From Podarcis cretensis (lineage: Eukaryota), in the NCBI GenBank assembly GCA_951804945.1, contig OX638149.1:77872001-77936000 (forward strand): DNA of 64,000 nucleotides, read 5' to 3'. The position numbers were made by a program, and so were the translations under genes. Shown here one piece after another: positions 37,201 through 49,200 of the stretch. The notes under the pieces were generated by a model. It made no database searches. It was not told where the DNA came from and was given only the letters and a program-made list of their open reading frames with translations. Positions within the stretch are counted from its first letter, which is position 1. Each line of letters starts with the position of its first letter.

Positions 37201-40200
37201 TATAATGTGTTGCAGAAAATTCAGGCAGGGAGACTGTTGGGCAGTGAGGTGGGTGGTAAGCCAGAACTCCTAATCTGTCCTGGTTGCCCAGTGCCAGGAT
37301 CACACACTCTAGATGCCATCCACCTCCAACTGCTCAGAAAGCCGAGAGAGAGAGAATTTCTACAGACCAGAGCAACTTCCCCTCCCTGACCCTCAAATCT
37401 GCCCTGATGCTGCACCAAGTATCGGGTGTGTGTGTGTGTGTGTGTGCAGCTGGGTGAGTCCAACTCCACCCTGCTCACCCACTTAGGTCTCAGTGATGCA
37501 GAACAGATTGGCCTCTGACCTGGCATTCAGCAATAGTGCCTGCAGAATCGAGGGCTGGCTGATATGACAACCACAATTACCCAGGTTGGAAAAGGGGCTG
37601 GCACATGGCACAGTCACTAACTGCCTGACATGTGCCCCTTACCCGGTCTGCCCCACCTCCCACATTATACCTCGCCCCTATCCTGAATCACTCTGATTAG
37701 GGCACTCCTCAATGTCCTCTCTTTTCAAATGCATCTCCCCTCACTCAGTAAAAACGAACAACAACAACAAACCACATAAATTAAAAACAGTTAAAACAAT
37801 TATAGCAGTGGCCTTATCTCTGCTGCTCTCAACTGCTGGTGCTGGCTTGCCTGAAGGTGAGAGGCTCAGTAGGTGCAAGACTAGCAGGAGGGAGGGGGTG
37901 GCTGTAGGTGGTGAGAGGACAGAAGTCTCTTCTCTTGCCCTCACTCTCTCTTTCCGGTTCACCTCCTTGCCTCACTTAGTTGCTTGTTTGGAACCTAGTA
38001 TGCAGATTAAATCATCTCATGCTAAACCCCGATACTGTTCCCTAATAGTACTGGTAACGCTACTCACTCCAAAGAAGACTTTAATAGATTTTGAGCAAGT
38101 GGTTCCAGTAGTACCGCAGGGAACATTTTCGGTGATGACTCGGAATGTTCCGGGGGCAGAGTTGTTCTGCCCACAGTGATCCTAAGAAGGGGAGGGTGAA
38201 ATAAGGGAAGAGATGACTTCATTCTGTGGTGTATTCAGCTTAATTCTCCATTCATAAGGCCAAGACAAATTGCTCAGTACCTGAACTAGTGTATATTCAC
38301 ATTTCCCATTGAAAATGTAACGCTTGTCGTCAAAGGTGATATAATGCCCATCTCCATAAACAGCACAGGTACCTAGGCATCTGTCCTTGGTGCATTCCCA
38401 CATCCTGTTCTTACATACGCTGAGGGAGAAGAAGGGAGAAAATAGAGCATTTTAAAGTGATTCCTTGGTTTGCACAGATATAAGCTGGCATGTATTCCTT
38501 TAACACAGGGTTAAATGACTTAGCTCTTAAATTAATCATAGGTAATGTGTGGAGAGGGGAGGGGAGAGCAAGGGAAGCTGCGTTATTTCTTACAACCTGT
38601 AAAACATCAGAAAGATGGGAATTAAAAGAAATGAGCTATGTAGGTTCTTTCATAGGCCACTCAAGAACGTTACAAGTTCACTGTACCATATTGTGGACTA
38701 GCCTAAGGGGAACATAAGAAGAGCCTGCTGGATCAGGCCAATGGCCCATCCTATCCAGCATCTGTTCTCACAATGGCCAACCAGGTGCCTTATAAAAGCC
38801 CAGACCTCCCTTATAATACTTTCCTGATTTGTTCAGAAATAAGCAAGATGTATGTGTGTGACTGTCTGTATAATGTATCATTGTGCTACTGAGGATATGA
38901 AGTTCCTCCTATCCAGCTGTATTTGATTACTTGGCTCATTCACCTCCACATCAGCCTGTCAATGCACAAAAGTTACCATCAGAAGCTTTCTTCTAGGTGT
39001 GCTCACAGACTTGGGGTATGGCAGGGGGTGACCAGGAAGGGAGCTTGTTCAGTGGTCACAGCCCATCTAAGGAACAGCCAGAGTGGTTTAGCTGTAGAAT
39101 CATAGAATCATAGAATCATAGAGTTGGAAGAGACCACAAGGGCCATCGAGTCCAACCCCCTGCCAAGCAGGAAACACCATCAGAGCACTCCTGACATATG
39201 GTTGTCAAGCCTCTGCTTAAAGACCTCCAAAGAAGGAGACTCCACCACACTCCTTGGCAGCAAATTCCACTGTCGAACAGCTCTTACTGTCAGGAAGTTC
39301 TTCCTAATGTTTAGGTGGAATCTTCTTTCTTGTAGTTTGGAACCATTGCTCCATGTCCGCTTCTCTGGAGCAGCAGAAAACAACCTTTCTCCCTCCTCTA
39401 TGTGACATCCTTTTATATGTGCCCATGCTACTATGTTTCTTTGGGAACAGATGAGGGCCACTTTATTGTCTATTGCCTTTTAACGAACTTTAAAGTCTGA
39501 ATTGACTGTTTTTAATTGTGCTTTTATCTGCTCTCTTTCATGATGTTGTTATTCTACAGTGCCTTAAAATGTTGATTGTTGTATGTGGATTTTACATAAG
39601 TCACCCTGGAAAATTTAATTTGACAAATAGAATATACATTTATTAATTAAAAAGTGTCATAGCCACACAATATTTTTAGGTATTTATTTCTTTAGTTATT
39701 TATAGTATACACAGGTGTACATTAGAGAGTAAACTCTGGTGTACATGCATAATAGTGTAATACTTGAAATGACTCTATGTATATCTGCCAACCTGTTATT
39801 CAACCTGATAATTATTTATATTTTCGTGTTAGTTACTTTAGGAACACATAAGATGATGGTAACAAGAGGAATATTTTTAAAGAAGTCCTTACCAGGTGTT
39901 ACAGTTGACTTTAATCTTCTCTCCTGGCTGAAATGTGGCATCATTGTGAATGCATGGACACTCTTCCATAGCGATGCAGCCCCCTTTACCATCTGATACC
40001 AGCCCAGCAGGGCACATGCAGCCAGAGACACACTGTGTGCTATACTGTAAAAGCCAAGAAATCATTACTTCAGAAGAGAGAATAATGCTGATAACAATTG
40101 AATTAGTCCACTAAAACAGGACTGGATCAAAAGACTGTAGGCTGTGGGAATTCAAGTGGGTGAAAGCCTATGCTTGTTAAATTGTGAACTGACACTTAAT

Positions 40201-43200: not shown

Positions 43201-46200
43201 GTGTCATCTCTCATCCTTTAGCAGGCAGGGGCTCGATGTACTTGGCTTCAGCAGTAGAATTGTATCATGTGCCTTCAGGCCATTTTAGCAATACAACAAT
43301 TGCTGACCCAAATTGGATTTTCAGTTCTGAGTTTCACTATTGTCAGTCTTACATTTTGGTTCAGAACTGGAATGGGAAATCAACATTACTTGCAAGCAAC
43401 TCAGGATTATAAGCATTATGTTTCAAAGCAAAATGAAGTATCATGCGGCATGTATGTGAATAAAAGGGGGGAATATTTATCTATATTTAGATCCAGGAGA
43501 TGACTGAAGTATTCCTACTCAGACTAAGCCCATTGAAATTAATGAATGCAAGTTACTCATGGCCATTAACTTCTGTGGGTCTACTTTGAGTAGGACTATC
43601 ACGGAATACTACTCACTGAGTTCAGACATTCATCTGACACAGAAGTCTTAAAGCCAGTGAGCTCATACATGTGCAACACTAGATTTCTCATCAGTTGATG
43701 ATACAGAGGAGAATATGTGAACTGACTCTTTTGAAAAGTTTATGTGTGGTGATATGGAATGGCATGAAAACCTTGTCTGTGGTACTGTATTTGATTTGTG
43801 ATGGCCCATTCAGCGGCACTGCTAGCCGCTTGGGTGCTGGGTGCAGCACACACGCCCTGCAGCTGGAGGTGGGACGAGCCACCCATGGGGGCGGAGTAGG
43901 CTTTATGGAGCCTCTCTGCCATCTCCCCCTCAGCTGTAGGATGGCTGAGGGAGAGGCGGAGGGCAGATGCAAGTCCCACGCTGCTGTTTCAGGCATCACA
44001 GAGCCTGCAGGTGCCCAAGCCACCACGTCACTTCCAGGAGAGACATGTGGCTCGGGCACGCTGCAGGCCCCGTGGTAAGTGCCGGCCCCCATGGTGTGGT
44101 GCCCAGTGCCAGCTGCGTTTCATTACGTTTGTTGACTGAACTAAAAAGTTTCATGAGCCCAATTTTTATTTTTAAAAACTCATATTTTTGTCATTATGCC
44201 ATCCCCCTCAGTGATGACACCTGAGGAGACCTGCACCCCCGCACCCCCTTCCTCCGCCACTCATGGAATCACCATTTGATACAGTAGTCATCAAGTGATG
44301 TGCATGCATTTGTGAACTACTCCTTTAAACGCTCCTATGCCTTCTAGTCAAATCCTGACTGGCTTTTCTCCCAGCCTTTAGAACATCAAGAAGCTCTATT
44401 GAAATTCTTTCACATCATCTTCACTCCTGGACATTCTGTTTATGCTCAGCACTTCACTGCCTCAACAAGGCCTATGTTAACTGCACAGCACTCAGCTCCC
44501 TTACTCCCTTGTCAGTTTCACCCTCTCCAGTTGTTGATTTCTGCTTTACTCTGTGAGGTGACATACCTTGCCTCATCCCTGAAACATGTGATGGTATGGC
44601 TTGGACCCCAGTGATCCAATACTGATGACACCTTCCATTTAGTTCCACCCATTTGGTCTTGTCCCACCAGTATGTTTCCTTATAGATTAGTGGTAGCCAA
44701 CATGGTGCCCTCCAGATGCTTATGACTACAATTCCCACCAATCCCAGCTAGTATGGCCAATTGTCATGGACAGTGGGAGTTGCAGTCCAAAATATCTGTA
44801 GGACACCAGGTTGCCTACCCCAACCAAATATACTTTTCAGCTTCCTCCAATAAACTGTTTTCAATGAGAGGTAACAGATAGCTTCATACCGTATGATAAG
44901 AAGCTGGATTAACTGAGGCATGACATTTAGCAAAAGGTCCTTCAGAGTCAGTCAGCAATCCACACCAATGTCGGGCGTATTTTTCTACAAAGAGAAGAAA
45001 TTAATCCATATCATTTTGGGAATTTCTATAGGTGCAAATGGCAGCTTTTATCTCAACTCACATCACTGACTCTAGACAGGATATCCTGGTGCTGCTACAA
45101 TGCTTGTTCTACTCACTGCTGTTCACTCATTGCTGAACCTCCTGAAGCCATGGACTGAGGAAGGAAATGATCTAGAGGACTTCCGGGTTAGCGCCTCCGG
45201 CAATGGTGGAGCTCCTCCGATTGGGAGGAACCGGCTCCGTGAAAAACAGGGTCTGACCGCCACAGCGAAGGCGGAGACCCTTAGAAATCACAGACGGAAG
45301 AAGTCTGTGAACCTGGGATTCGGATAGCACCTTCTGCGCCCCCCTACTCGCGGAGAGACCCGGTATCGGGAATCCGGAGCGACGTTGGGTGAGAAGCGCA
45401 GTGCTTTGAATCGACCGCTTATTTCACGGAGCGAAGCCGCATTGCTGCTGTCGGAGAGCGCTGACTTTTTTCCTGTGGACAATTGGATTTTAAACAACAA
45501 CCCGTGAATAGAACAGGAAATTGAGCTTTTAAACAATTTAATTTGGCACCGAACGGGGAAGGTTCAAACAGGAAGTCCACCTTCCCTTTCTGTAAATAGA
45601 CTGAAGCAAAGTAGTTGTTAACTAAGGTTTTGGAAAGTCTTATGTAAAGGATTAAAACTCCACTGATTGAAACTATTAATTTTGACCAAGTGAACTTGCA
45701 GGAGAAGGTGAAAAATTAAAAATCGAAGCATCACGTCTCTGAACCTGGGAACGGTTTGCAAAAAGTCCATCGACGGTAAACAGGACAAATTTGACAGCTA
45801 GCTTTAAAAGAAAGACATTGTTTCTATTGTCCGCTTCTCCACTTAAAAAGAAGAAAAGGTAACTGGAAACTGTTACTAATTTACGTTTGGAATTGTGCTG
45901 GAAAGGATTGATACAAATGGAGACTGTCTTCCTCTAGAGGGAGTTTTGGGACATTGTTACAAGAGTGCAGCTGGGAAATTGGCCTTAAGATAAAGACTGT
46001 GAGAAACTAGTTCTGACCTTGACCATCTTAAGAATGTCGGCAAAGGAAGAAGTAGCGTCTGTACTGAATAGGACAATCTATCTGTTGGGAAAGCTGCATA
46101 AACAGATAGATGTCATGGCTACTAATATTGATATTTTGGGAACAAAAGTGGGTATCAGCATAGAAGTTGACAAGAACCCGGCACAGGAATCTTTCTTAAC

Positions 46201-49200
46201 TGAACAAATTGATGAATTAGAGAAGGAGAAAGTTGCTGTTGTTGAGTACAAAGCAAAACAAGGGGGAGCCTTAACCCTAAAGAGGCAAATGGAGGATTAT
46301 AACTTGAGGCCTTATATGACTGTAATTAGGAGAAGCCAGTTTTTGAAGATGGTTGCCTGGCCTAATCTGGAAAAGGAAAGGTGGAGAGATCCCCTTGTGC
46401 AGGGATCAAATGACTTTTGGAATATGAATTTGAGCCAGGAGGAGATTGGAGCTTTGGGGGCCTTTGGACTTCGAAGAATTGTGAAACAAGATTCGGAATA
46501 CTTTATGGGCCCTAGCTTTAACTATGGAAATCTGGCAGACCTGTCAAGAAGGAATATAAGCATCGTTGGGTTGGAGCTCCCCCGAGATCTGCTTTTTAGC
46601 ACCAAAGATTATCAAGAAGATTGGCAGAAGTGAAGTGAAGAAGAGTTAAGAGCCTCGGATATAAGATCTCCAGGTTGATGGTCGCTGGGAGGTTGATGGA
46701 ACTGACGGCAGGGGCCGAGACCAGGGAGGGGAGACGGTGGAAGAAAATTGGGAATTTAAAGTGTATATATGGAGATTTAAAAAAAAAATTAATGAGAGAT
46801 GGAAAAATTGTGGAATGAAATTTTTATGACCCTAGGGGAAATGTCTTAAGAGATTAAGTTCAAATATATTAGTTTTAATGAGAAATAAGATTAAACAAAG
46901 TAAAAATGGATGATTAATTGGTGAAAGAAGAGAATGTTAAATTACAGTATATTAAGATAAATTATTAGGATAAAAACAAAGATGAAGGATTTGCTGAAAT
47001 ATCTAACTGAACCAGAATACAAAGAGGGGAGGTGTGAGGAGGTCAAGGAAATAAGCTAAAGAAAGAAAGTTATGTAAAGGTTTGATTTGTTCTTTTTTTT
47101 ATTGTATGCATTTTTTTTCTTTTTTGTCTGTTTTCCTTTTTTATCTTTTTTCTTTGATGGGACTTGTTTTTATGTATTGTTTTGCTTTGTTTTTTGGTTT
47201 AATTGGGTGTTTTTCTGTTGTTATTTTTTTATTACTCATGTAACCTTTAAAATTTTAATAAAAATCTATTTAAAAAAAAGAGGAAGGAAATGATCTAAAT
47301 CTTGAATATGTGCATGCTACAGATACCCAATATACCCATTATGCATAGGGATGTTAGTTTATAGACTACTTGCAAAACTTACAAGCCACAGTCTAAAAAA
47401 GAGGTAGCCATGTGTACATCCACTTACCGTATTTCAATGGGGGGTGGCATACCTAACTTCTTCTGTTTAGATTGTGGCTACAGGATCTTGATTTGCAAGT
47501 TTTTATTGTTATTTATTTCCCCTGATTTCCCCATTTATTAATATTTGTTTTCAGTCAGTTCTTCTAATTTGTTTATTTCTATTAATTTTCCCCATGAGCT
47601 AGGTAGAATTATAATTTTGAAGTGTTTGTGAGCCTTGCTTATAATTCTCAAATATGCCTACCATTTTCAATGCTAAGCGTGCAAGGGTCCTCAAAACTTT
47701 GTTTGATGTTGGGACATGCAGCCTGAGTTTTCCAGGTGTTAGCAAATGCAGATGCTGTTCCTTCCACCACTCCACTTATGGCTGTGAAGTCATCCATCTG
47801 GCGCTTGTCAAAGTTTCCACAGAGACCTTTGAAAGAAACCCCAAAGAGTTTTATAGTCCAGTTTTATAATACTTTGCCCCCCAGGCATGCCACAAATTTC
47901 TTTTTGCTTTAAAATACTTCTTACCACAAGTCCTTCCTTTGAAAGATGGACCCACATGAATATACAATTGCATTGTGGGTACGAGCTGGATTACTAGCTG
48001 AAGGCCAAAGTTTGTATGCACAATGATGAAGAAGGACGATGGTCTGAATATGGTTACATTAGCTATGGACAAAGAAGACACCATTCTTATGAGATTCAGA
48101 GCTGCAACTGCCATCCATTACTCAGGAAAAGAAGAACCAGATTTGTGAAAGCCAATTCATGCAAGCACATTGGCATGTTGTGACTGTGGGCTGGGTGGAT
48201 GTGTGAAGGGTTTGATACAAGTTGAAACAGTTATATGTTTACTTTCAGATTGTGCCCAACCATCAGCCCAATCTACATTGGCCACCATATCATCGTTTGC
48301 CCCAGTTTTGTTGATGATTAAGTGGTATGAACTGAAACAATAATGTGGAATATATGGCATGGATCTAACAAATCGTAACCATTGAAGGATTGGGGGAATA
48401 TGATAAAATAGTCTGGCACCAGAATGATAACAACGATGGCACCAGACATCTTTTAGAAGGCAGTCCCATAAATGGGGTGCAAAAAGGGGCTTATTTCTGG
48501 CAGCCAACTTCTTAATCTTTGGACACCAGGTGAAAGACCTTTCACAAAATATATCTCAGCTAATAAGTAGTTTCCTATAGGAGGTGGCTGTCCTTCACAT
48601 ACTCTGGTCTCAGCTACAGAGGTAGCTTAGGACCTTGTAGTAAACAGCAGCAGTTTATATTCTCATTATGGAGAGTCCTGGTTAACAAACTTGCTACCTA
48701 ATCTGGAAGTTCCTTTCAAAGGTTGCCTTACATACAATGCATTATATTATAGTAGCTGTGGCTGGATATTATTAAAACATGGCTGTTTGTAAGAGAATCC
48801 TTCATTTCCAGGGGAAACCTCTACATTAGTTGTGGAGAACATTTGGTCTTCCAAGTGTTGCTGAACTACAACTACAACTCTGCTATTGGCCATGCTTCTT
48901 GGGGCTGATGGGAGTATTGGTCTAGCAACATTCAGAGGGCCACAGGTTCCTCACATCTGCTCTACACAAACCCAACTTTCTTTTCCCAGCAGAACTGGAA
49001 AAGGGAAAATAGTAACCCAATCAAACCTTGCTAGCTTTTGGAGTAACAAGCTCTTCTGCTGAGCTTGCCCCTAAGATTTCAAAACTTTTAAGGCTGCCAT
49101 GGCAAACAGAAGTTTCTGACATGCAACATACCTGCTGAGAGAGGCAACTGAGTGTAGAGCGAGTTGACCAATACACCACCATTAGGACTGATCACAATGG

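Follow-up and report, generated by a model that had tools for sequence, protein, structure and literature searches.

The stretch of DNA analysed here, a 64,000-nt piece of the Podarcis cretensis genome (contig OX638149.1, positions 77,872,001 to 77,936,000 of the forward strand; hereafter the window), harbours a 2.1-kb retroelement bounded by an exact 18-bp target-site duplication (TSD). The element lies antisense within a 2.7-kb intron of a minus-strand gene of the gel-forming mucin type, with VWD and TIL domains, and the exons that flank this intron join (Table 1). The original prediction, made from the letters of the window, had proposed this placement for an L1-style element, and the parts that it had listed (the TSD, a CpG-rich 5' end, a 199-aa open reading frame (ORF) starting with ATG, an AATAAA signal and an A-tail) are all in place. 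The 5' end contains 30 CpG dinucleotides between 45175 and 45560, at an observed-to-expected ratio of 1.08 versus 0.19 in the flank, and the A-tail of the window copy is only 8 nt long. The description of the element as intact-looking does not hold, as the ORF of the window copy (46034-46633) runs into a premature TGA at codon 200, 15 aa short of the family ORF, which encodes 214 aa. From the family majority, the window copy diverges by 1.0% outside CpG sites and 8.8% at CpG sites (family medians, 1.5% and 9.6%). On these figures the insertion is young, as had been proposed, but not fresh, and the window copy is already damaged.

Table 1. Features of the element and of its host intron, in window positions (UTR, untranslated region; RRM, RNA-recognition motif; CTD, C-terminal domain).
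Feature	Position	Strand	Basis or remark
5' TSD, 18 bp	45157..45174	+	exact direct repeat
3' TSD	47280..47297	+	exact direct repeat of 45157-45174
L1-derived 5' UTR, CpG-rich, with inferred internal Pol II promoter	45175..46033	+	identity to L1s L235 and L229; CpG observed/expected
Splice-donor-like CCCGTGAGTA site in the leader, mutated in the window copy	45501..45510	+	exact in 40 of 50 copies
Family ORF, 214 aa, deleted L1 ORF1; broken by TGA at 46631-46633 in the window copy	46034..46678	+	
N-terminal heptad helix (codons 7-39), with which the ORF1p coiled coil begins	46052..46150	+	hydrophobic positions, omega, AlphaFold 2
Remnants of ORF1p RRM and CTD	46334..46607	+	alignment to L1 L229 (DNA and protein); placement on human ORF1p 2yko/2w7a
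Deletions of ~40 aa and ~18 aa	near 46477-46503; near 46605	+	bounds approximate
Conserved terminal motif, beyond the premature stop and hence untranslated in the window copy	46646..46678	+	
Remnant of the last L1 ORF2 codons, L1 3' UTR, AATAAA (47257) and 8-nt A-tail	46693..47279	+	alignments to L224 and L137
Host intron GT..AG of the VWD/TIL mucin-type gene	44985..47661	-	

The genome (1.5 Gb in 51 contigs) contains many copies of the element. At the DNA level, the best 40 of 7530 candidates gave 45 matches, most of them near full length at 92-97% identity. Copies that are not 5'-truncated share one start, (GGA)CTTCC, and TSDs of 11-22 bp were identified in 19 of 30 fetched loci. A protein search returned at least 151 ORF matches, from 100% down to 72% identity. 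By our own count, no internal stop interrupts 112 of the 150 matches listed, a figure biased by their ranking; among copies selected by DNA, 19 of 30 have the full ORF of 213-216 aa. Indels inside the ORF measure 6 or 9 nt in subfamilies A2, C, D and E. Three copies (L010, L011 and L020) stop at codon 184, an Arg codon in other copies, probably through recurrent CpG decay. The family is young, and its ORF-bearing copies in the genome number at least 150.

All parts of the element can be traced to L1. Over element nt 3-874, the leader shares 66-72% identity with the 5' UTR of L1 L235, and over nt 1-488 it shares 72% with that of L229. The ORF is colinear with ORF1 of L228, L229, L234 and L235 at 57-65% DNA identity, and a hidden Markov model of lizard ORF1 proteins (ORF1ps), which themselves match human ORF1p (2yko, 2ykp) at E 1e-10, scores the window protein at E 1e-16. 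The cargo, for which an undescribed protein had been considered, is thus a deleted ORF1p. It was not recognised at first because Pfam Transposase_22 misses even intact lizard ORF1ps, to which it gave no match. A search of the genome with PF02994 found no ORF1, which is uninformative because intact lizard ORF1p escapes PF02994 too. The element ORF begins at an internal Met just ahead of the coiled coil, the N-terminal 48-76 aa of ORF1p being gone. Two further stretches have been lost in frame: one of about 40 aa, matching the second half of the human RRM, and one of about 18 aa in the CTD, which the L218, L219 and L221 lineages retain. A short peptide stretch considered as a motif of the coil/RRM junction was rejected, as it aligns to the CTD.

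The ORF terminates inside the ORF1p tail, directly followed by the last codons of ORF2, now non-coding, and by the L1 3' UTR. This 3' part is 59% identical to L1 L224 over 413 nt (E 2e-12) and 70% identical to the ORF2 end of L137 over 92 nt. As L1 parts occur in order, with an ORF1 tail joined to an ORF2 end, the ancestor must have been an L1 with one large internal deletion. Two L1 copies, L140 and L230, carry large internal deletions that fuse ORF1 or early ORF2 to later ORF2, which would be the kind of event that founds such families. We regard it as close to certain that the element is an L1-derived, half-L1-like non-autonomous retrotransposon encoding a deleted ORF1p, and the proposal of a full-length, non-autonomous, multi-copy family is borne out by the shared ends, the TSDs and the L1-type 5' UTR. 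As for its partners, the genome also harbours a very young L1 family (L134-L139) of about 5.95 kb in which both ORF1 (332 aa) and ORF2 (1247 aa) are intact; its ORF1p, too, escapes Pfam Transposase_22. L1s of this type are about 98% alike and numerous, with at least 150 ORF1 matches at 92-100%, and they are likely to be the helpers of the element; old degraded L1s were rejected in that role. The TSD, the A-tail, the L1 3' end and the presence of intact L1s suggest that the element uses L1 ORF2p in trans.

The family belongs to a larger set of relatives. Two further families each gave at least as many matches as the search listed, and 4 of 20 loci retrieved for an unrelated reason happened to contain relatives. 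Among distant families, 11 of 20 fetched loci are TSD-bounded elements (duplications of 13-21 bp, mostly 1.7-2.2 kb in size) with the same 5' end, and protein identity in the superfamily ranges down to about 27%. A profile search of 1.84 billion representatives yielded 15 matches, namely 12 family-type proteins and 3 with L1 ORF1 sequence, and a distant relative is annotated as a hypothetical protein in Podarcis lilfordi. With the window protein as query, searches of Pfam, PDB sequences, the ESM Atlas and a word index returned nothing useful apart from a single unnamed relative, and a search with longer proteins gave no match. Among the papers that literature searches listed, none was found to describe a squamate half-L1 or the tail motif presented below; the superfamily does not appear to have a name in the searchable literature, and its families may already be catalogued as repeats in Repbase or Dfam. 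One distant member, TSD-flanked (L142:2506-4337), is inserted in the ORF1 end of an otherwise full-length L1. Two TSD-bounded members (L218 from 1984 onward, and L207) have much shorter leaders, in elements of 1.7 and 1.2 kb, so inserted copies may lack a large part of the 5' UTR. In P0014, a predicted protein of 422 aa, lizard L1 ORF1p follows what looks by eye like a RING/B-box TRIM-like N-terminus; either a genuine fusion or an error in the gene model could account for it.

The ORFs of this superfamily share a terminal peptide. Grouping 75 ORF ends at 88% identity gave 20 clusters, and all of them end in L-R-A-S-D-[VIL]-R-x-P-G-stop, with L, R, A, S, D, R, P, G and the stop invariant; three loci were left out for failing the regular expression of the motif (ends RALDIRLP and, twice, RASDTRLPG). 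The x residue is S in 10 clusters, L in 6, N in 2, Y in 1 and D in 1, and Ala occurs in a few pattern matches. For 10 of the 20 clusters this conservation is circular, as they were found only through the motif pattern, which does not apply to the other ten; the window protein, itself devoid of the motif, was the query that retrieved subfamilies A-E. Moreover, 27 of 30 copies from another family, recovered with a query lacking the last 58 aa, carry the motif as LKASDVRNPG, with K for the first R. The pattern, in its Val form only, had 480 genomic matches versus 0 for a reversed control. Within the motif, codon positions 1 and 2 are almost fixed and third positions vary, with synonymous variants such as TTA/TTG, TCG/TCA/TCT, GAT/GAC, AGA/AGG/CGT, GGT/GGC and, for the stop, TGA/TAA. 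The 60 nt before the stop are free of indels, and many indels follow it. An alternative-frame reading of the ORF2 end as the origin of the motif was rejected, since the motif aligns in frame with the ORF1p tail. In autonomous L1s, the matching tail varies freely (RALDREPTD, RASNRKSPD, RALEKG, RTLVSE), so the constraint on the tail was gained after the loss of autonomy.

Selection on the protein was estimated as omega, the ratio of nonsynonymous to synonymous rates, with a codon likelihood of our own. For the whole ORF, omega is 0.63 among 21 close copies (p 8e-6) and 0.66 among 20 deep representatives (0.63-0.70 across sets), in keeping with the proposal that the element has a protein-coding ORF of its own; NG86 estimates between subfamilies run from 0.3 to 1.0, depending on kappa. 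Among 11 representatives not found by the motif pattern, omega is 0.37 for codons 1-30 (p 7e-7; 0.37-0.42 across sets), 0.8-0.9 and non-significant for codons 31-202, and 0.41 for the last 12 codons (p 0.018 versus neutrality), where shifted frames give 2.1 and 1.1. All 28 of 28 aligned proteins have hydrophobic residues at positions 11, 17, 18 and 21, which include heptad positions 11, 18 and 21. The AlphaFold models are of low confidence (pLDDT 36 and 47), the first helix, in the better one, being the only fairly confident feature; beyond about residue 40 the pLDDT is below 50. Constraint is thus concentrated at both ends of the protein, in the N-terminal heptad helix and in the tail.

What a stripped ORF1p might do for its element can be proposed from these two pieces. 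The reading that we favour, tentatively and at somewhat less than even likelihood, is that the tail pauses the ribosome and the nascent coil tethers its own mRNA to helper L1 particles. On reaching the end of the ORF, the ribosome would be paused by the conserved tail; the N-terminal coil, emerged by then and some 170 unstructured residues away, might join the ORF1p of a helper L1, presumably as a hetero-coiled-coil; and the mRNA would be held where ORF2p takes the poly(A) tail. A link through the nascent chain is favoured because the RRM and CTD are broken and a selfish element keeps a protein only if its own RNA benefits. By analogy, truncated human ORF1p pairs with full-length ORF1p through the coiled coil (PMC5605252), bacterial arrest peptides end in R-A-P-G/P (PMC7897499), and at a stop placed after the 'PG' of 2A the chain is not released by eRF1 (PMC12846837). 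The more specific claim, that LRASD[VIL]RxPG-stop is a newly evolved eukaryotic arrest peptide serving as a nascent-chain leash for a coiled coil that grips the helper L1 particle, we consider doubtful.

A number of points weigh against the pausing mechanism, itself proposed from sequence and analogy. The synonymous rate in the motif is low (0.59) and its GCC codon invariant, which makes a constraint at the nucleotide level possible. When the minimum number of changes is counted on family-majority codons, 12 are synonymous and 13 nonsynonymous (p 0.051), and that with the P-D-stop lineage left out. This lineage (L220, L221 and P0011) ends in P-D-stop instead of P-G-stop. In the set of 11 representatives, omega for the last 12 codons is not significantly different from that of the whole ORF (p 0.14). 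The strongest omega for the tail, 0.25 (p 3e-6), involves some circularity, as the motif pattern itself had retrieved many of the rows, and omega is lowered in general by the choice of copies partly through protein similarity. As regards the analogies, truncated ORF1p suppresses L1 in human cells instead of hijacking it (PMC5605252), and RSPP variants weaken bacterial arrest (PMC7897499). The motif is out of register with 2A, and S, N or L mostly takes the place of the Ala of R-A-P-G. Finally, the residues of the tail also satisfy a known C-degron.

This last point leads to the main rival, in our view unlikely but far from negligible, in which the tail is a C-terminal degron: the coil would help briefly in cis, after which the released protein would be destroyed and the helper ORF1p trimers spared. 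Such a role could coexist with pausing. The R-x-P-G end fits the APPBP2 rule R-x-x-G-x0-3 (PMC10614623), and R-x-x-G indeed occurs within 0-3 residues of the C-terminus in 20 of 20 clusters; however, conservation extends over ten residues, beyond the Arg and Gly that APPBP2 mainly reads. Similarly, '-PG' ends match those read by KLHDC proteins, Gly being the least common C-terminal residue (PMC9098119), but the P-D-stop lineage has no terminal Gly and lacks R-x-x-G at its end. That truncated ORF1p is dominant-negative (PMC5605252) would agree with a need to remove the released protein. The P-D-stop lineage offers a natural test case between degron and arrest.

Alternatively, translation alone might matter, through mRNA stability or ribosome association, and the tail might be an RNA- or codon-level signal by the ORF2-derived 3' end. 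We regard this as distinctly unlikely. It would explain why the ORF keeps its frame although its middle part evolves almost neutrally (omega 0.8-0.9), as well as the reduced synonymous rate of the motif and its invariant GCC, but the variation of the motif is at third positions and frame-specific. No conserved RNA fold or hairpin was found over the motif (mean z 0.1), and the N-terminal heptads are clearly selected (p 7e-7).

A third possibility, which seems improbable to us, is that the finished protein uses the tail as a short motif to bind ORF2p, ORF1p or a component of the host, for example an import protein or one of RNA granules. With one helix, one conserved linear motif and little other structure (pLDDT below 50 past about residue 40), the protein is built like an adaptor, yet the motif always stands directly before the stop, and with a broken RRM and CTD the released protein has no evident means to favour its own RNA. 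Lastly, a processed pseudogene of a host mRNA, a single copy of which had been named in the original prediction as the refuting case, or the debris of a one-off L1 deletion, would fit the TSD, the A-tail and the broken ORF of the window copy taken alone, but is practically out of the question with at least 150 dispersed copies that have shared ends, subfamilies, an open ORF and parts that all derive from L1.

As for the surroundings of the element, the window copy reads GTGAAT at the splice-donor-like site of the leader, and CCCGTGAGTA is also present in L1 5' UTRs. The CCCGTGAGTA site could allow transcripts from the L1 promoter to be spliced into host exons. Elsewhere in the mucin-type gene, a CR1-like 3' fragment was recognised by eye from its translation at 39106-39479 of the window. 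Contigs from four presumed-RNA runs contained relatives of the element that were mostly less than 95% alike, with no flanks covered, and are uninformative on the window locus.

These families bear on how non-autonomous elements evade the cis preference of L1 and on what role HAL1 proteins play. With some 20 lineages that have a stripped ORF1p and two short constrained pieces left, the residues to mutate are named. If the tail does stall vertebrate ribosomes at the stop, it would represent both a new arrest peptide and a new mechanism of hijacking. Alu elements dock on ribosomes; the proposed leash, if true, would be a protein-encoded counterpart to that docking and a third way past the cis preference of L1. 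If the degron is true instead, a transposon would have adopted a host destruction signal to spare its helper.

The tail resembles several known peptides. With 2A/StopGo peptides, some of which belong to non-LTR elements, it shares the P-G end and an upstream D-[VI] (PMC12846837, PMC12338488), but its D-V is one residue nearer the PG, there is no Glu, the Asn is not fixed and a stop replaces the Pro. An assignment to 2A was therefore rejected, D-[VIL]-R-x-P-G-stop standing against D(V/I)ExNPG-Pro in class A and PGP in class B. Like the RAPP/RAPG peptides ApcA, ApdA and ApdP (PMC7897499), the element protein has a conserved C-terminal stretch ending in R-x-P-G and an N-terminal interaction module; those peptides are bacterial, with Ala as x, and the resemblance is one of motif, without homology. 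R-x-x-G and -PG at the extreme C-terminus are shared with CRL2-APPBP2/KLHDC C-degrons (PMC10614623, PMC9098119), from which the element differs by six further conserved residues and by one lineage that ends in PD.

The autonomous L1s compared here (L228, L229, L234 and L235 for ORF1; L224, L225 and L137 for the 3' end) are the source of the 5' UTR, the ORF and the 3' end and have the same heptad register; the tail EPRASNRKSPD of L234 is the homologue of the element motif. They differ by the presence of ORF2 (1247 aa in L137) and by a variable ORF1p tail that runs well past the point of the motif. Half-L1s of mammals, HAL1, were reportedly described by Smit in 1999 and by Bao and Jurka in 2010. 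HAL1 is an ORF1-only L1 derivative (PMC5753468, PMC5786205), and its type of protein has been proposed to multimerise with that of the helper (PMC5786205). The element shares with HAL1 an L1 5' UTR, a single ORF1-derived gene, the lack of endonuclease and reverse transcriptase, a TSD and an A-tail, as well as multi-copy spread as a unit and an open ORF1 under purifying selection (omega 0.63-0.70). In contrast, a complete ORF1p with coiled coil, RRM and CTD is absent, given the deletions in the RRM (about 40 aa) and the CTD (about 18 aa, in most lineages), and for this reason we file the element as a variant form of HAL1. It also differs from HAL1 in being a squamate element, in its many coexisting families and in the strongly conserved terminal peptide that they have gained.

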